The position numbers and the translations under genes are program-made. From an uncultured Christensenellaceae bacterium (GTDB lineage: Bacteria; Bacillota; Clostridia; Christensenellales; UBA3700), in NCBI GenBank assembly GCA_944380295.1, contig CALWHE010000001.1:1172-65171 (forward strand): 64,000 bases of DNA. The letters run 5' to 3'. The stretch's first letter is position 1, and the number at the start of each line of letters is the position of its first letter. Shown piece by piece: positions 38,032 through 43,170 of the stretch. Below the pieces are notes generated by a model. It was not told where the DNA came from and did not search any database. It saw only the letters and a list, made by a program, of their open reading frames with translations.

Positions 38032-38238
38032 GGCGGGGCGATTTTTGAAAAACCGCGCGGCAGGGCGCGGTTTTTTCTGCCGCGCGGGCGCAAAATTCTT
38101 TTATCCGCCTTTATTTTTTCGATTTTTATGCGTTTTTTCTTAAAGGCGGCGGGGCGCGCGCAGGGCAGCAGTGCAAAGTTTGAGTAAAATTTTTTTGCTC
38201 CGAACCGCATTTATCCCCACAAATGCCCGAAATTACTA

Positions 38239-38267
38239 TTGACATTTATTTTTGCGTATAATATAAT
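38239..38267 (+). promoter_or_regulatory. candidate promoter of the giant repeat-protein gene
   Basis: TTGACA, 17 nt, TATAAT. Confidence 0.55.
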
Positions 38268-38317
38268 TATATTAACGTGGGGACAGGACCGCGTAGTTTA
38301 TGTTAAGAGGTTCGATT

Positions 38318-41300
38318 ATGAGGGAAAGCGTAAAGTTGCATTCGTCTTTCAAATTCGTGGTGGCGATGATTTTGGTGGCCGCGCTTTGCGTCGCGGCTTT
38401 TTCTCCGCTCTTCGCGCCCGCGTCCGCCGCGGCGGAAGCCTGGCAGGGCACGGCGACGTATCAGCTCGGCAACGGCTACACACAGGATACAGTCATTCCC
38501 GGCGCGTATAAAGTGGTATGCGACGGCGTTACATACGATTCCGGCGTGCCCGAAGTCTTGGGCGAGATAGCGCCGAATGCGGGCTATAAATTCGTCGGCT
38601 TCCAAGATAACGGCGGCACTTTGGTGGCTGAGTTCGACGGCGACGATACCTTTACCGTGACGGAAGCGTTCATCAATGCGACCGGCACTTATACTCTGAT
38701 CCCCGCCTTCGAAGTGATAGAATACAAAATAACTTACGATCTGAACGTGCCGAGCGGCGTGACGGCGCAGCCCTCCAACCCCAACACGGCAAAAACTTAC
38801 ACGGTCGAGGATAACCCCGTCGCTTTGGCGGTGCCCACGCTGGCGGGCTGGGAATTCGGCGGCTGGCAGCTGCCGAACGACGACATCGTGCAGCAGATAG
38901 ACTCTTCCCTGATAGCTGCTCTGACAGCGGACGGCGAGCTGCCCGGTAACGAGTTGGTTCTTACGGCGCAGTGGGCGGAACAGACCTTCACGCTCACCGT
39001 GATGATAGATCAGACCAAAATAGAATACGAAGCCATCCCCGGCGTGTCGATCGGTAACTATATCGGCGCTCTCACTCCCGAAGACAAGGGCGACTCCGAA
39101 CAATTTTTGGGCTGGGAGATGGACGGCAAGATCATCGATGTGATGACCACGCTCATGCCTGAGAAAAACACCACGGTCAACGCCAAATTCGGCATTCCCT
39201 CAGTTCACGTGAGCTTTATCGTTAAAAAAGCCACGGTGGAAGACGCAAACAAGTTCGATACAAAAAATGATATATTTATCGAAGTCACGGAAGGAACATA
39301 TACTCCCGAAGCGCTTGCCGCGCAAGCGGGTAGCAAGCTTAACTATACCGGATTCACCCGCACGTCGGTCACCTGGGAAGACGGCACCGATGCAGCCAAA
39401 GAGGTGAGCGGTTCGTGCTCCGTAGTGTGCATTTATGAGCGCGACCAATGCAATCTGCTCATCCATTATCGTTACGACCTCAACGGCGACGGCATTCCCG
39501 ACGACATAGACGGCGACGGCGAGGCGGACATCGCGGCGTTCGATGTGCGTGACAGCGGCGTTTACGGCGACAGATACGAAAAGTCTTCTCCGCAGATAAA
39601 GGGCATGCAGGCGCTCACGGGCACGGTGGCGGGCATATATGACAGAGATTTCACGGAAGTGACCGTGCTTTACACCACCGCTCCGGACAAGCGCAAGGCG
39701 GAACTGGGCGGCATAGGCGGCACGGTCACCAATGACGAAGGCGGCTTGATAGACGCCGCCGTCAGCGTCACCTGGGATCCGGCGGCTGCGGGCGCGCACA
39801 GTGCCATGGCGGCAGGCACGGGCAACGAAGCTTACGGCGTGCTCTCCGTGGAGATAGCGGAAGCGGAAGGCGCGGTGTTCGGCGCCCGCGGCGTTTACAC
39901 TCTCACCGTGGACCTGGGCGAGAGCATGGCGGACAAGACTTATTATAATGTATATAAAATAAATGACGACGGCACATACGCGCCCATCTCCGTCAGATAC
40001 AGCGGCAGCACTCTGGTGCTCACGGTAGACGCCGCCGGCGATTATCTGGTCACCGGCACGCCCGTGCAGGACAACACGCTGCTTTGGGTGCTCATCGCGC
40101 TACTCATCCTGCTGCTCATCCTGCTGATAGTGCTGTTGCTCGTCCTGTTGCTGCTGAGCAAAAAGACGGTCAGCTTTGAAGTGAACGGCGGCGAAGAAGT
40201 GGATAAGATAAAAGCCAAGAAGGGCAACGTGATAGAACTGCCTCTGCCCGAACGCGAAGGTTACGAATTTGCCGGCTGGTATCTGGACGAAGAGTGCACG
40301 ATCCCCGCGCCGCTCGAACCGGGAGAGGCGGACAAAGACGAAGCGCCCGCCGAGGACAAAAAGGGCAAAAAGGATAAAAAAGCCAAAAAGGACAAGAAAG
40401 GCAAAAAGGCGGCGCCCGTAGAAGCGCCCGCGGAAGAAGCCCCTGCGCAAGAAGCCCCTGCGGAAGAAACGCCGGCAGAGGAAGCGCCCGCGGCAGAAGC
40501 CCCGGCGGACGAGGCTCCGGCAGAGGAAACCCCTGCCGAAGAAGCTCCCGTGGAAGCGCCTGCGGAAGAAGCCCCGGCAGAAGCGCCTGCGGAAGAAGCC
40601 CCGGCAGAAGCGCCTGCGGAAGAAGCCCCGGCGGAAGCGCCTGCGGAAGAAGCCCCGGCGGAAGCGCCTGCGGAAGAAGCCCCGGCGGAAGCGCCTGCGG
40701 AAGAAGCCTCGGCAGACGAGGCTCCCGCAGAGGAAGCGCCCGCGCAAGAGCAAAGCGAAGAGATCAGGATATATGACGAGCCGGACGGCAAAGACGTCAC
40801 CGACGAACAAAAAGGAGGAGGCACCACCGATACCATGAGTTCCAAACGCGCCAAAAAGGCAAAAAACAATAAGCCGGCGGCTCCCGCCGCGGCAGAGGAA
40901 CAAGCCCCTGCGGAAACTCCCGCCGAGGAAGTCCCTGCCCAAGCGCCCGCGGAAGAAACTCCCGCAGAGGACGCCCCCGCGGCAGACGCGCCCGTGGAAG
41001 AAACTCCCGCCGAGGACGCCCCCGCGGCAGACGCTCCCGTCGAGGAAGTCCCCGCGGAAGAAGCGCCGGCGGAAGTCCCCGCGGAAGAAGTTCCCGCAGC
41101 TGACGCCCCCGCAGAAGCTCCTGCGGAAGACGCTCCCGCAGCGCCCGCTGAATTTGTGTTGCCGGAGGTCATGCGCTTCAAGGTGACGGGCAGCGTAAAA
41201 CTTTACGCCAAGTGGAAAGAGATAGTGCCGGAAGAGGCGCACGCGGTCAACTTTGTCGCCTGCGGCGTTATCCAGAGCACGGTCAAAACGATGGGCAAAG

Positions 41301-42949
41301 AGCCTGTTGCCGTGCCCGCGGCGCCCGCGTTGCCCGGATACGCCTTTGCCCGCTGGATCTTCAAGGACAAAAAGGGAGAAGAGGTCGCCTTTACGGAAAG
41401 CACGCTGGCGGACAAATATCTGCTGGAAGATCTCAACGTCATCGCCGATTACATCAAGGTGGTGCCCAAGATCAGATTTTATGCCTGCGGCGTGTTGCAG
41501 CGCACGCTGGAAGTGCAGGGCATCTGCGCCGTGCAGCTTCCCGAAGCGCCCGCGCTGGAAGAATACCGCTTCTGCAACTGGTATACCCTGCAAAACGGCG
41601 CGCAGGTGCCGTTCACGGGCAGAGAGACCGCGCAGAGTTATCTGACGGAAGATCTGAACGTCTATGCCGAATATATCAAGCCGGTGCCCGTGGCGGAAGC
41701 GCCCGAACCTCACCTCATCACCTTTATGGCGGACGGCGAGGTGGTGGCTACCATAGAAACCGCCGGCAGGGACGCGCTCGATCTGCCCGCCGCGCCCGTC
41801 AAGGAAGGCTTTGTCTTCCGCGGCTGGTTCACGGACGAAGAAAAGCACAACGAGGTGGTGGAAGAGAGCAGTTATGTGGATAAGGATCTTGAAGAGGATC
41901 TGATCCTTTACGCCTTCTATGAAGAAGAGAAGGAGCCGGAAAAGGAAGAAGATTTTGCCGCGGCTGCCATCTTGCCGGAAGAAGACGATGAAGAGCCGGA
42001 GGAAGAGCCGGAAGAAGAGGACGAAACCCCCGAAGTGGAAGAGAAAGAAGACGACGAAGAAGAGCCGGAAGAAGAGCTCGAACCGGGCGCGCCCAGGATG
42101 ATCACGGCGGCGGACGCCATCAAGCGCCGCACGTCCACCATGCGCGGACGTCTGAGATACGGTTCGGACGTGAACAAAGCCATATACGAAGAGCTGGTCA
42201 ACCACCTGTTGCAGTTCAAGAACGTGTCCCGTTCGCTCACCAACAGGGCGGACAACTTCAAGAGCAAGGGCGCGCTGCTTGCCAAGATCACGCTCACGGG
42301 CAAAACGCTCAAACTCTATCTGCCTCTGGACGCTGAGCAATACGATTACGACAAGTATCATCAGCTCATCACGGAAAAGAAGGGCTATGAAGAAGTGCCT
42401 TTCACCATCAAGGTCAAATCCAACCGCGGCTTGAAATATGCCAAGGAACTGATAGACGAAGCCATGGCGCAGGCGGGCGTGGAACGCAAGAAGAAGGCGG
42501 GCGAGAAGAAGAGCTTCAAGGAGCTGATCCTGCTGCAAAAGGGCAGCCTGCTCATCAAGAACAAAAAGACGGAAAAGCTGCGCTCGCGCGTAGACTCGCA
42601 GGACGCCAACGCCCAGCTCACGGACGCGGAGGCGCAGGAGCTGATCAGGATCAAATACGTGCCCGTGTCCGACGAGGTGAAAAAGACGGCTTTCGTGGGC
42701 TTGGACAAGATAGAAGATCTTTACAACGACTGCGACATGGTCAACATCAAAACGCTGCGCAAGCGCGGGCTGGTCAAAGACGAGCATAACCGCGTGAAGA
42801 TAATCGGCGGCGGCACGCTGACCAAATCGCTCAAAGTTTATGCGGACGAATATTCGCTCACGGCGGTCAAGATGATCGTGCTTTTGGGCGGCAAAGTGGT
42901 CAAAAACGTGGAAGAAAGCGTGGAAAAACCGGAAGAGGGCAAGCAATAA
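38318..42949 (+). CDS. about 1543-aa repeat protein: signal peptide, Listeria-Bacteroides (Flg_new-type) repeats, central hydrophobic helix, further Flg_new-type repeats, Pro/Ala/Glu tandem repeats, acidic tract, uL15-like C-terminal segment
   Basis: Start moved to ATG 38318 behind AAGAGG. Repeat signatures such as GYKFVGF, LAGWEFGGW, REGYEFAGWY, LPGYAFARW and KEGFVFRGWF. Terminator at 42971-42996. Confidence 0.75.
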   Translation: MRESVKLHSSFKFVVAMILVAALCVAAFSPLFAPASAAAEAWQGTATYQLGNGYTQDTVIPGAYKVVCDGVTYDSGVPEVLGEIAPNAGYKFVGFQDNGGTLVAEFDGDDTFTVTEAFINATGTYTLIPAFEVIEYKITYDLNVPSGVTAQPSNPNTAKTYTVEDNPVALAVPTLAGWEFGGWQLPNDDIVQQIDSSLIAALTADGELPGNELVLTAQWAEQTFTLTVMIDQTKIEYEAIPGVSIGNYIGALTPEDKGDSEQFLGWEMDGKIIDVMTTLMPEKNTTVNAKFGIPSVHVSFIVKKATVEDANKFDTKNDIFIEVTEGTYTPEALAAQAGSKLNYTGFTRTSVTWEDGTDAAKEVSGSCSVVCIYERDQCNLLIHYRYDLNGDGIPDDIDGDGEADIAAFDVRDSGVYGDRYEKSSPQIKGMQALTGTVAGIYDRDFTEVTVLYTTAPDKRKAELGGIGGTVTNDEGGLIDAAVSVTWDPAAAGAHSAMAAGTGNEAYGVLSVEIAEAEGAVFGARGVYTLTVDLGESMADKTYYNVYKINDDGTYAPISVRYSGSTLVLTVDAAGDYLVTGTPVQDNTLLWVLIALLILLLILLIVLLLVLLLLSKKTVSFEVNGGEEVDKIKAKKGNVIELPLPEREGYEFAGWYLDEECTIPAPLEPGEADKDEAPAEDKKGKKDKKAKKDKKGKKAAPVEAPAEEAPAQEAPAEETPAEEAPAAEAPADEAPAEETPAEEAPVEAPAEEAPAEAPAEEAPAEAPAEEAPAEAPAEEAPAEAPAEEAPAEAPAEEASADEAPAEEAPAQEQSEEIRIYDEPDGKDVTDEQKGGGTTDTMSSKRAKKAKNNKPAAPAAAEEQAPAETPAEEVPAQAPAEETPAEDAPAADAPVEETPAEDAPAADAPVEEVPAEEAPAEVPAEEVPAADAPAEAPAEDAPAAPAEFVLPEVMRFKVTGSVKLYAKWKEIVPEEAHAVNFVACGVIQSTVKTMGKEPVAVPAAPALPGYAFARWIFKDKKGEEVAFTESTLADKYLLEDLNVIADYIKVVPKIRFYACGVLQRTLEVQGICAVQLPEAPALEEYRFCNWYTLQNGAQVPFTGRETAQSYLTEDLNVYAEYIKPVPVAEAPEPHLITFMADGEVVATIETAGRDALDLPAAPVKEGFVFRGWFTDEEKHNEVVEESSYVDKDLEEDLILYAFYEEEKEPEKEEDFAAAAILPEEDDEEPEEEPEEEDETPEVEEKEDDEEEPEEELEPGAPRMITAADAIKRRTSTMRGRLRYGSDVNKAIYEELVNHLLQFKNVSRSLTNRADNFKSKGALLAKITLTGKTLKLYLPLDAEQYDYDKYHQLITEKKGYEEVPFTIKVKSNRGLKYAKELIDEAMAQAGVERKKKAGEKKSFKELILLQKGSLLIKNKKTEKLRSRVDSQDANAQLTDAEAQELIRIKYVPVSDEVKKTAFVGLDKIEDLYNDCDMVNIKTLRKRGLVKDEHNRVKIIGGGTLTKSLKVYADEYSLTAVKMIVLLGGKVVKNVEESVEKPEEGKQ
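40562..40712 (+). repeat. intragenic perfect tandem repeat, 27-nt unit x5 plus a partial unit (AEEAPAEAP)
   Basis: GCGGAAGAAGCCCCGGC(A/G)GAAGCGCCT repeated head-to-tail. Units differ only at one synonymous position. Confidence 0.9.
40952..41041 (+). repeat. intragenic tandem repeat, 45-nt unit x2 (EETPAEDAPAADAPV)
   Basis: Two adjacent 45-nt units differ at 3 synonymous positions. Confidence 0.85.
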
Positions 42950-42970: not shown

Positions 42971-42996
42971 AGCCCGCCGCCGAGGCGGGCTTTTTT
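42971..42996 (+). terminator. rho-independent terminator after the giant gene
   Basis: AGCCCGCC-GCCGA-GGCGGGCT followed by T6. Confidence 0.8.
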
Positions 42997-43053
42997 CACG
43001 CCGCGATTTTGCGCCGCGCGGGGTAAAGCGCGCACTTTACCCCTTCAATTTGC

Positions 43054-43082
43054 TTGCATAAACTTTTTTATTGTGTTAAAAT
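43054..43082 (+). promoter_or_regulatory. candidate rpsO promoter
   Basis: TTGCAT, 17 nt, TG-n-TAAAAT. Confidence 0.5.
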
Positions 43083-43170
43083 AACATACGTACCTGCGGC
43101 TGGGTCTTGCAAACACTCCGATGTATCACTCGGCGGCAGGCAAATAAATTTTCCGACGGAGGTAAAAACA

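Follow-up and report, generated by a model that had tools for sequence, protein, structure and literature searches.

Ribosomal protein uL15 (rplO; PF00828, TIGR01071) is a protein of ~145 aa whose N-terminal extension, rich in Gly and Arg, threads into 23S rRNA, and we know of no role of its fold other than rRNA binding. The Flg_new or B-repeats of Listeria InlB and other surface proteins are otherwise familiar as extracellular domains, and in InlB they are followed by GW modules. ToxR-like proteins have an N-terminal cytoplasmic winged-HTH, a TM helix and a C-terminal periplasmic sensor. The genomes of gut Clostridia and Erysipelotrichia are rich in large envelope proteins annotated as 'hypothetical'. 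[quoted passage not shown] DUF2357 is the N-terminal domain of McrC (PMC11090510).

The window, which is the whole 64,000-nucleotide stretch of DNA that we analyzed, comes from a chicken-gut Clostridia bacterium and contains a gene for a 1543-aa protein (Table 1). Its C-terminus consists of a basic domain, which we call X, a helical linker and a uL15-like domain. More than 1000 uncharacterized protein clusters share one strongly conserved cytoplasmic end-piece of this kind, X plus a uL15 paralogue.

Table 1. Features of the gene and its 1543-aa product, in window coordinates (a slash within the signal peptide marks the cleavage site)
Feature	Position	Strand	Residues and details
Sigma-70-type promoter	38239..38267	+	TTGACA-17-TATAAT; 12/12 consensus matches
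Shine-Dalgarno site	38304..38309	+	AAGAGG, 8 nt 5' of ATG 38318; read from sequence
ORF	38300/38318..42949	+	1543 aa from ATG 38318 (MRESVKL...)
Signal peptide	38318..38428	+	aa 1-37; K/R n-region MRESVKLHSSFK, h-region, c-region APASA/AAE; hydropathy
Ectodomain part 1	38429..39199	+	aa 38-294; three divergent InlB-B-repeat/Flg_new-like units
Ectodomain part 2	39200..40075	+	aa 295-586; no family match
Two adjoining DxDxDG calcium-loop-like motifs	39476-39523	+	aa 387-402, starting at aa 387 and 396
Transmembrane helix	40076..40156	+	aa 587-613; Kyte-Doolittle up to 3.95
Flg_new repeat 1, N-terminal part	40163..40300	+	aa 616-661; 49.4 bits, profile positions 2-47 of 65
Disordered insertion	40358..41152	+	Lys patch aa 681-697 and Pro/Ala/Glu repeats aa 698-945
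Lys patch			aa 681-697, KKGKKDKKAKKDKKGKK; composition
Putative closing strand of Flg_new repeat 1, and repeats 2-4	41153..41923	+	LYAKW motif, aa 946-968; repeats 2-4, aa 969-1202
Poly-acidic tract	41924..42088	+	aa 1203-1257; net -31
Domain X	42107..42493	+	aa 1264-1392; strongly basic alpha/beta domain, ~125 aa
Helical linker, X to uL15-like domain	42494..42679	+	aa 1393-1454
uL15 C-terminal-domain paralogue	42680..42907	+	aa 1455-1530
Intrinsic terminator	42972..42996	+	GCCCGCC-GCCGA-GGCGGGC-TTTTTT (T6); read from sequence

The open reading frame is a real, transcribed gene. Metatranscriptome contigs, of which the one starting at 38291 is from run X6, cover 38291-40603 and 41104-42932 at a depth of 43-53, vs 16 for the upstream gene, where these are assembled contigs that carry no strand information and may include DNA carry-over. 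Their outer ends coincide with the promoter and terminator limits; the contig of the upstream gene stops at 38036 and the next one, rpsO, begins at 43108. The initial annotation had described a mosaic protein whose gene has its own consensus promoter and terminator between housekeeping genes. Both signals were recovered, and the gene forms a transcription unit of its own. The ORF list, hydropathy, composition and Pfam matches showed the frame and nearly all of the listed features to be real; signal peptide, repeats, TM helix, spacers and basic C-terminus were all mapped. The orthologue alignment shows a common MR(E/D/V) protein start, and we rejected the ATG at 38300, whose Shine-Dalgarno site is poorer and which the orthologues do not share. 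A 948-aa antisense ORF (40100..42946, minus strand) is an R/F/G-rich mirror image of the Pro/Ala/Glu and acidic codons, and it was rejected as a gene because family matches and coding-type conservation occur in the plus frame only. Upstream lie recJ, relA, dtd, an MBL hydrolase and a radical-SAM gene, and downstream rpsO and pnp. The order radical-SAM gene, 1543-aa gene, rpsO-pnp is kept in at least two lineages, and this synteny is limited to the close orthologue group. No conserved operon partner was found in nine loci, and no conserved neighbour suggests a pathway.

The signal peptide is probably cleaved at its A-S-A/A motif, as the AxA/AE pattern is kept in the aligned orthologues. Motif and regex searches of the 1543-aa protein found neither a lipobox nor an LPXTG-like motif, and 930 residues follow the hydrophobic helix. 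Of the ~560 aa that had been described as carrying Listeria-Bacteroides-type repeats, aa 38-294 do contain three weak repeats (Flg_new_2 and Flg_new scores of 18.1, 21.0 and 14.9 bits, every one sub-threshold), but aa 295-586 match nothing in Pfam, and a sequence search of the PDB with the ectodomain was empty. The calcium-binding-like motif noted earlier was confirmed, as two DxDxDG motifs retained in 4/5 orthologues. The net charge of the whole ectodomain is -52.

A type I single-pass topology, with ~550 aa outside and ~930 aa in the cytoplasm, is well supported by three sequence features that the aligned orthologues share: signal peptide, TM helix and, in all of them, (S/R/N)KK after the helix. 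The localization had been called unclear; taken together with the family statistics, the sequence places the C-terminal 930 aa in the cytoplasm. Of 114 relatives with a TM helix upstream of the module, 101 carry more K/R in the 15 residues that follow their last TM helix than in the 15 that precede it, and only 2 carry fewer (means of 3.8 after and 0.6 before). Where the only TM helix is N-terminal, 26/28 relatives combine an uncharged N-terminus with K/R beyond the helix, which argues for an N-out, C-in orientation, and the reverse pattern was seen in 0/28. One relative is a MIP aquaporin with X fused to its C-terminal end; the termini of such a protein are cytoplasmic, and together with the charge bias this places the module inside.

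Flg_new (PF09479) reaches 133.7 bits (cut-off 27) over five stretches of the protein, with at least one repeat above the gathering score, and TIGR02543 scores 53.5 bits against 20.95. Three weak repeats would be extracellular, and the four clearest ones come after the TM helix, in what is predicted to be the cytoplasmic part. This placement is odd and is a point against our main model. The first post-helix repeat appears to be split by a 285-aa Lys/PAE insertion, since Flg_new_2 bridges the join (E 0.043) in a spliced construct from which the insertion was removed; the scores after the insertion are 22.0, 21.5 and 46.3 bits. The Pro/Ala/Glu tract contains 44 P, 83 A and 61 E among its 248 residues, with a net charge of about -65, and at the DNA level consists of 27- and 45-nt tandem repeats. 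The length of the insertion varies between strains, with orthologues lacking 14-142 of its residues. Several Flg_new beta-grasp units, the signal peptide and a C-terminal region of basic charge are shared with InlB and other Flg_new surface proteins, but the window protein is TM-anchored, and the prediction puts four of its repeats and the basic module in the cytoplasm. Pfam gave no LRR, GW or SH3-like match in the window protein, and it does not qualify as an internalin.

A basic C-terminal region of ~260 aa had been recognized before, and it is indeed basic (aa 1259-1530, net +20), but the conserved module within it, X and the uL15-like domain, had been overlooked. Structure prediction of the C-terminus followed by Foldseek, as proposed at that time, gave a double-wing-like X and matched uL15 chains. 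The AF2 model of X has a pLDDT of 92.6 and suggests a YjbR/YdhG/DUF5655-like 'double-wing' fold (alpha-beta4-beta-alpha), with alignments to YjbR/MmcQ, YdhG (DUF1801) and DUF5655 at TM 0.55-0.67; the similarity to YjbR is weak. The matches were a phage DUF5655 protein (E 3.4e-5, TMq 0.67), E. coli YjbR (2fki; E 2.5e-3, TM 0.59-0.62), 9t2w, 2oc6 and 2kl4 at TM 0.5-0.58, Listeria and B. subtilis YdhG-like proteins, frataxin-like YdhG and, at low rank, the type III secretion chaperones SigE, Spa15 and ExsC. X differs from YjbR, YdhG and DUF5655 in being far more basic, in occurring in tandem arrays and in having no sequence-level membership. No Pfam HMM, including MmcQ/YjbR (PF04237), DUF1801 and DUF5655, matched the window's X above noise, weak matches to DUF3788 or DUF5655 (E 0.016-0.05) occurred in only 2-3 of 44 X copies, and a search of PDB sequences with the X profile was empty. 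X copies have a mean net charge of +10.6 and ~14 conserved K/R columns. The fold class also takes in iron-binding (frataxin-like YdhG) and secretion-chaperone-like proteins.

The uL15-like domain scores 38.8 bits against PF00828 (Ribosomal_L27A/uL15; cut-off 21.5), which puts it within the globular L15/L18e fold. It matches S. aureus uL15 aa 72-141 (E 6e-5), the family profile matches E. faecalis uL15 aa 74-145 (E 6.8e-14; Firmicutes uL15 aa ~72-146), and uL15 chains are the top Foldseek matches (E 2e-5). The K(V/I)(L/I)GxGxLxKxLxV and terminal GG motifs of uL15 are kept in aa 1455-1530. By its sequence this segment is nonetheless a paralogous domain and not a ribosomal protein. TIGR01071 (rplO_bact) scores 34.5 bits against a cut-off of 77.95 and covers model positions 70-143 only, so that the protein is not an equivalog; X and the helical linker stand where uL15 has its Gly/Arg-rich extension; and the domain ends a 1543-aa membrane protein outside a ribosomal-protein operon, 13 aa before the stop codon. 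A conserved AD/AN (acidic or neutral) occupies two positions that are basic in uL15 (VKAHK in S. aureus), and the mean charge of the domain is +1, near neutral. AF2 modelled the complete module with a pLDDT of 88.7 and a pTM of 0.78, and a module made of X and a helical linker packed against a paralogue of the globular uL15 C-terminal domain is well supported.

The two ends of the protein evolve very differently. Orthologue identity is 75-96% in the module and 25-45% in the ectodomain, with dN/dS of 0.04-0.14 and 0.2-0.8, respectively. Part 1 of the ectodomain is the fastest-evolving portion (32-44% identity between orthologues; 89% identity and a dN/dS of 0.83 to the near-identical strain L001). 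Within the module, X is 75-93% identical (dN/dS 0.08-0.14), the helical linker is 73-92% identical, and the uL15-like domain has a dN/dS of 0.04-0.10. From these ratios, strong purifying selection on the 270-aa terminal module is well supported.

Exhaustive HMMER searches with the C-terminal 286 aa of the window protein found the module in 1138 clusters of Firmicutes at E<=1e-10. Word-index searches recovered few homologues, and none with the X alignment, and a single-protein scan of the 1543-aa protein returned only five close MAG relatives. X is present in 1-7 tandem copies per protein with the uL15-like domain variably present, and where the latter occurs it ends no more than 25 aa from the C-terminus in 89 of 90 cases. 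In membrane-protein relatives the module is invariably C-terminal to the last TM helix, and a hydrophobic segment follows the first X in just 1/156. The window protein fits this pattern of X, helical linker and C-terminal uL15-like domain downstream of the last TM helix. Linkers have a median length of 104 aa and reach 692 aa. The hosts are adhesin-like giant surface proteins, polytopic proteins, the MIP aquaporin, a signal-peptidase-like protein and bare N-terminal anchors. Soluble multi-X relatives carry DUF2357 in 7/7 tested, and X is always tethered either to membranes or to DUF2357. Two candidates for free-standing module proteins, P0085 and P0154, are probably split or mis-called genes and were discarded as support for a module that stands alone. 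At the one DUF2357-(X)n gene examined there was no McrB-like neighbour, and we do not claim a McrBC system for these genes. Neither the module nor a typical X domain had matches in phage collections, plasmid collections or PHROGs. The initial annotation knew of no characterized protein with this architecture and proposed a survey of homologues and their domain orders; the survey found varied domain orders and no characterized member. All source names were 'hypothetical protein', and searches of the literature on uL15-like domains, PF00828 fusions, Flg_new membrane proteins and PDC-S18 turned up nothing relevant.

By analogy, the arrangement recalls FtsK/SpoIIIE, RNase Y, the basic ribosome-binding tails of YidC2/Oxa1, and ToxR-type regulators: a membrane anchor, a long low-complexity linker and, for the window protein, a putative cytoplasmic binder of nucleic acid or ribosomes. 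The minimal relatives have the same layout as RNase Y: an uncharged N-out stub, a TM helix, a linker and the module. Domain searches found no homology to any of these and no ATPase, nuclease, KH or wHTH domain. Relative to ToxR, the wHTH/Trans_reg_C match is absent and the polarity of the window protein is opposite, with its N-terminus outside.

Given these observations, we tentatively favour, at a little below an even chance, a surface protein with a membrane-tethered nucleic-acid- or ribosome-binding tail. In the well-supported part of this reading, the signal peptide exports ~550 acidic, fast-diverging residues, including a membrane-proximal domain, and the single TM helix anchors them. The ectodomain is probably an adhesin or receptor under diversifying pressure. 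The module would act as a polyanion binder, for which we count the charge and conserved K/R columns of X, its fusion to DUF2357 and the double-wing fold. Its ligand would most likely be nucleic acid, because members of the X fold class are predicted or shown to bind DNA and binding to rRNA is the only role known for the uL15 fold. Such a protein would fasten RNA, ribosomes or the nucleoid to the membrane below a surface domain that varies, and the acidic spacers could give flexible reach or serve as an intramolecular nucleic-acid mimic that covers the basic module. The uL15 site of mature 50S subunits is already occupied by genuine uL15, so simple binding at that site is unlikely. Further points against this reading are the AD/AN in place of basic uL15 residues, the near-neutral uL15-like domain, the weak likeness of X to YjbR, the iron-binding and chaperone-like members of its fold class, and the lack of a conserved neighbour that suggests a pathway. 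For the family as a whole, it is possible, if doubtful, that the X plus uL15-like tail marks an unrecognized, widespread Firmicutes class of membrane-to-nucleic-acid tethers, in which the duplicated half of a ribosomal protein, linked to a basic double-wing-like domain, would couple adhesins, channels and other membrane proteins to RNA, the nucleoid, or ribosomes and pre-ribosomal particles.

The tail could instead be a protein-protein or membrane-lipid module, such as a clustering scaffold, an anchor to the cytoskeleton or the cell pole, or a binder of peptides in the manner of a chaperone, that positions or stabilizes diverse membrane proteins without binding nucleic acid. The very diverse hosts would suit a general localization tag, the fold class of X includes type III secretion chaperones and frataxin-like YdhG, the uL15-like domain is near neutral, and anionic phospholipids are possible ligands of basic domains. 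We nevertheless consider this unlikely, given that the charge of X is high, conserved and repeated in tandem behind acidic spacers, that the uL15 fold is known for rRNA binding alone, that soluble relatives join X to the McrC N-terminal domain, and that linkers of the observed length are needless for reaching an adjacent membrane.

Transmembrane signalling is less probable still. Here the ectodomain would sense a ligand and intramembrane or juxtamembrane proteolysis would free the tail to regulate transcription or translation, as in RsgI and ToxR types with reversed polarity. The order of ectodomain, single TM helix and nucleic-acid-binding-type cytoplasmic domain would allow this, long disordered linkers are open to proteases, and membrane-bound one-component regulators are common and widespread (PMC10269533). 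However, many relatives have no ectodomain or are polytopic and transport-type, which argues against sensing as the core function; at the loci examined, genes for a site-2 protease, a sigma factor or a regulator are not among the conserved neighbours; and domain searches found no helix-turn-helix or known regulator domain.

A role in defence against phages or mobile elements, with the surface domain as receptor or decoy and X recognizing invading nucleic acid at the membrane, seems quite improbable, even though the ectodomain shares its fast evolution with phage receptors. The link comes from the PADLOC candidate system PDC-S18, whose models have X as their C-terminal third: model positions ~190-330 match X copies in many relatives (P0003, P0005, P0006, P0012, P0013, P0028, P0031, P0058 and P0157), and the soluble multi-X proteins bear the McrC N-terminal domain. 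PDC-S18 and the McrC-like DUF2357-(X)n proteins share X with the window protein, but the latter has no DUF2357, is membrane-anchored, carries a large ectodomain and sits in a housekeeping locus, conserved in at least two lineages, rather than in a defence island. PDLC04945 and PDLC04946 match neither the whole window protein (E<=0.01) nor its C-terminal 286 aa (E<=1), domain searches found no nuclease or other effector domain, no homologues turned up in the phage and plasmid collections, and PDC-S18 is itself a candidate system.

That the whole C-terminal half lies outside, with the basic module as a non-covalent wall anchor on teichoic acids like the GW modules of InlB, is very improbable: B-repeats are classically extracellular and four follow the hydrophobic helix, a basic C-terminal module behind B-repeats recalls InlB, and the PAE-rich tracts look like wall-spanning regions of Gram-positive surface proteins, but the signal peptide and a single 27-residue L/I/V helix followed by KK predict a C-terminus inside, the family-wide positive-inside statistics and the MIP fusion put the module in the cytoplasm, and relatives that start with just an uncharged stretch and a TM helix lack a signal peptide for its export.

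If the module does bind ribosomes, RNA or DNA, it would represent a new and common monoderm route to membrane-organized translation or nucleoid, with translation or the chromosome organized at specific membrane sites across the tether class, and it would open a large block of dark-matter proteins to functional study. The window protein, read as a tether, would be a direct link from a hypervariable surface domain to the machinery of translation or of the nucleoid. The predicted topology, variable outside and conserved inside, indicates which part is the candidate adhesin, antigen or phage receptor. For annotation, the name 'uL15 family ribosomal protein' is inappropriate for module-bearing proteins, and domain X merits a family model of its own.

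The C-terminal tail of the window protein (286 aa), which the initial annotation had described as a basic region, in fact consists of two conserved domains, and these are the key feature that was missed at first. At residues 1460-1528 the Pfam family Ribosomal_L27A (uL15/L18e) scores 38.8 bits (cut-off 21.5), residues 1454-1524 align with residues 72-141 of S. aureus uL15 (phmmer against the PDB), the NCBIfam rplO model matches over its positions 70-143 only and below its cut-off, and a profile built from 23 family members matches residues about 72-146 of Firmicutes uL15 with an E-value of 6.8e-14. The domain is thus a paralogue of the uL15 globular half, without the N-terminal extension that threads through rRNA. 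The window protein fails the equivalog test and so is not itself a uL15 ribosomal protein.

Upstream of the uL15-like domain lies a second conserved domain, here called X (residues ~1264-1392), which has no Pfam family or other family model and no sequence relative in the PDB; nothing relevant came from the literature searches. When the tail was modelled with AlphaFold2 and compared with Foldseek, as the initial annotation had proposed, all 286 residues formed one confident unit (pLDDT 88.7, pTM 0.78), with a pLDDT of 92.6 for X alone. The X model best matches E. coli YjbR (E 2.5e-3, TM about 0.6), and it also matches YdhG/DUF1801 proteins and a phage DUF5655 protein (E 3.4e-5), which suggests a fold of the 'double-wing' class, the likeness being weak and at the level of the fold only. 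DNA binding of the T4 MotA-C kind is predicted for YjbR, which also resembles McrB-N (PMC7641849, PMC3424535). The net charge of X copies averages +10.6, and in about 14 alignment columns K/R make up 60% or more; conserved K/R residues of the window protein include R1278, K1329, K1365 and K1367. The copies are placed behind long acidic spacers.

Localisation had been considered unclear, but it can be resolved as type I from the signal peptide, the charged residues after the membrane helix, the charge bias of the family and a fusion to an aquaporin. The signal peptide has an AxA|AE site that is conserved in the orthologue alignment, where it is probably cleaved, the 27-residue L/I/V helix has (S/R/N)KK after it in every orthologue, and a motif search of the window protein found neither LPXTG nor a lipobox. 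Based on these features, we predict a type I protein with about 550 residues outside and about 930 inside, so the four best Flg_new (Listeria-Bacteroides-type) repeat units would be cytoplasmic, which is odd; we know of no precedent for this. For 114 relatives with a transmembrane (TM) helix ahead of the module, K/R were counted in the 15-residue stretches on either side of the last TM: the stretch after the helix is the richer one in 101 cases and the poorer one in 2 (means 3.8 after vs 0.6 before), and only 1 of 156 relatives has a hydrophobic segment beyond the first X. Where there is a single N-terminal TM, 26/28 lack charges at the N-terminus and have clustered K/R beyond the helix, and none of the 28 has the reverse pattern; these segments are N-out, C-in anchors, not signal peptides. 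In relative P0170, X follows a MIP aquaporin as a C-terminal fusion; the C-terminus of that family is cytoplasmic, so this fusion agrees with a tail that is inside. We rejected 'signal peptide plus two TMs' as a description of the giant relatives: they have three hydrophobic segments and are K-rich after the first and third, which therefore would also place their tails inside. In the giants of Erysipelotrichaceae type (P0019, P0037, P0039, P0018, P0015), this conserved anchor reads TM-KKKK-short hydrophobic hairpin 'LLPIIFLSHYLD'-TM-KKK and is followed by two or three X and the uL15-like domain.

The nearest relatives are encoded by MAGs of Christensenellales from the chicken gut (Ca. Caccalectryoclostridium at 92%, Ca. 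Alloclostridium at 86%), and the gene order radical-SAM, window gene, rpsO-pnp is kept in two lineages. Identity among orthologues is 76-96% in the uL15-like domain (dN/dS 0.04-0.10), 75-93% in X (0.08-0.14), 49-74% in the cytoplasmic Flg_new units (0.22-0.33), and 25-45% in the ectodomain (residues 38-586), rising to 66% in its membrane-proximal part (0.2-0.46 for diverged pairs and 0.58-0.83 when compared with L001, a near-identical strain). The outer part is fast-evolving; constraint falls on the tail, as the functional core. Residues 38-294 are 89% identical to L001 (dN/dS 0.83) vs 96-100% elsewhere, and the metatranscriptome strain has SNPs at 2.9% in this part vs 1.2% in the 3' half, which suggests diversifying selection or recombination at the exposed tip.

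An exhaustive HMMER search with the tail returned 3261 clusters at E<=1e-3, of which 1138 remain at E<=1e-10 and 111 at E<=1e-30; the weakest matches probably include genuine uL15 proteins. Domains were mapped in the 150 best matches; the mapping counts 1-5 X in tandem per protein (up to 7 in relative P0026), and the uL15-like domain is found in 90, ending 25 residues or less from the C-terminus in 89 of them. Of the 150, 51 begin with a hydrophobic segment that is followed by an ectodomain of >100 aa and then by one or more TM helices; 35 have an N-terminal TM only, 6 are polytopic, another 20 differ in TM arrangement, and 38 lack a TM. Relatives are up to 4721 aa long and contain almost no Pfam family besides PF00828 and Flg_new. 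All source names found read 'hypothetical protein', the MAGs concerned being those of Clostridia or Erysipelotrichaceae, and the literature searches were negative, so the early statement that no characterised protein has this architecture holds. In addition to the aquaporin, X is joined to a signal-peptidase-I-like membrane protein (P0005); the module decorates membrane proteins of unrelated function. All seven soluble multi-X relatives tested (P0013, P0026, P0028, P0031, P0041, P0043, P0058; 3-7 X) begin with DUF2357, the N-terminal domain of McrC (PMC11090510). Genes that seem to encode the module by itself are probably artefacts of annotation: P0085 looks like part of a split gene, since it abuts an ORF of 2628 aa (L010 1-5915), and an extra X copy lies on the + strand beneath minus-strand gene calls just 5' of P0154 (L011 4282-4656).

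The window protein belongs with the repeat-containing, membrane-anchored envelope proteins known from Firmicutes, and its tail module occurs in no characterised protein. Internalins, sortase substrates and lipoproteins are classes to which it does not belong. Given the charge pattern and fold class of X, the fusion to a McrC-type N-domain, and the uL15 fold, for which rRNA binding is the sole job known to us, we prefer to see the tail as a membrane-tethered nucleic-acid-binding device, by analogy. The presumed ligand could be RNA, ribosomal particles or DNA, and the acidic spacers may provide reach or mask the basic module. Against this we count the weak fold likeness of X, whose fold class includes iron-binding and chaperone-like proteins, the conserved AD/AN that stands where uL15 has basic residues, the uL15 site in mature 50S subunits, which is already filled by genuine uL15, and the lack of conserved neighbour genes at the loci examined. 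The tail could instead be a protein or lipid scaffold, or a regulator that is freed by proteolysis. That the tail represents a truly novel class of tethers between the membrane and ribosomes or the nucleoid seems to us less likely than not.

A defence function is another rival: the C-terminal third of the PADLOC candidate system PDC-S18 is an X domain and matches many relatives, but the PDC-S18 models do not match the window protein, which is not a member. No McrB-like neighbour was present at the single DUF2357-(X)n locus inspected (L012 4985-8536), and X and the whole module were absent from the phage collection, plasmid collection and PHROGs searched. An extracellular wall anchor at the C-terminus is the rival that the data contradict most directly.

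Features of the window discussed in the text
Feature	Position	Strand	Basis or remark
Lysine riboswitch, Rfam RF00168	6884-7051	-	full-length, 85.4 bits vs gathering score 30
Own terminator of upstream radical-SAM gene	~38053-38076		sequence
Perfect TTGACA-17-TATAAT promoter	38239-38267	+	sequence
Shine-Dalgarno AAGAGG		+	read from sequence; 8-nt spacing to ATG 38318
ORF, 1543 codons	38318-42949	+	
Exposed tip (aa 38-294)	38429-39199		
Antisense ORF, 948 aa	40100-42946	-	R/F/G-rich, low complexity, overlaps gene
Pro/Ala/Glu (PAE) tract	40409-41152		27- and 45-nt units
GC-rich hairpin, then T6 run	42972-42996	+	sequence
Second GC-rich hairpin, no T-tail	43020-43043		between the gene's terminator and rpsO promoter-like site
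Promoter-like TTGCAT...TAAAAT 5' of rpsO	region 43050-43110		

Contigs assembled from a gut metatranscriptome (run X6) span two stretches of the gene, 38291-40603 and 41104-42932, and the adjoining contigs stop at 38036 upstream and begin at 43108 downstream, with a word depth of 43-53 for the gene vs 16 for the upstream gene and a very high 319 for rpsO. The contigs are unstranded, but because their limits coincide with the predicted promoter and terminator, which had been noted from the outset, the gene is real, monocistronic and apparently expressed. An in-frame ATG at 38300 is disfavoured as the start since the MR(E/D/V) N-terminus of ATG 38318 is common to orthologues. The antisense ORF was judged to be an artefact that mirrors the GAA/GCC-rich PAE and acidic codons, because family matches and coding-type conservation are confined to the + frame. 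The second hairpin could serve as a leader or a regulatory element of rpsO; it has no match in Rfam.

The compositional features of the initial annotation are all present where it placed them; its observation is confirmed, and its interpretation is partly supported. About 560 residues of Listeria-Bacteroides-type repeats had been proposed for the ectodomain, but the repeat signal is confined to residues 38-294, where each repeat is below threshold; residues 295-586 have no match in Pfam or the PDB. Beyond the hydrophobic helix, the first Flg_new repeat (residues 616-661) matches profile positions 2-47 of 65 and seems to be completed by residues 946-968 (LYAKW motif), which would make the Lys patch and PAE tract a 285-aa insertion inside one Flg_new unit. 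The net charge is -65 in the PAE tract and -31 in the poly-acidic tract. The PAE tract varies in length among strains and orthologues, relatives lacking 14-142 of its residues, and is the break point of short-read assemblies in several runs.
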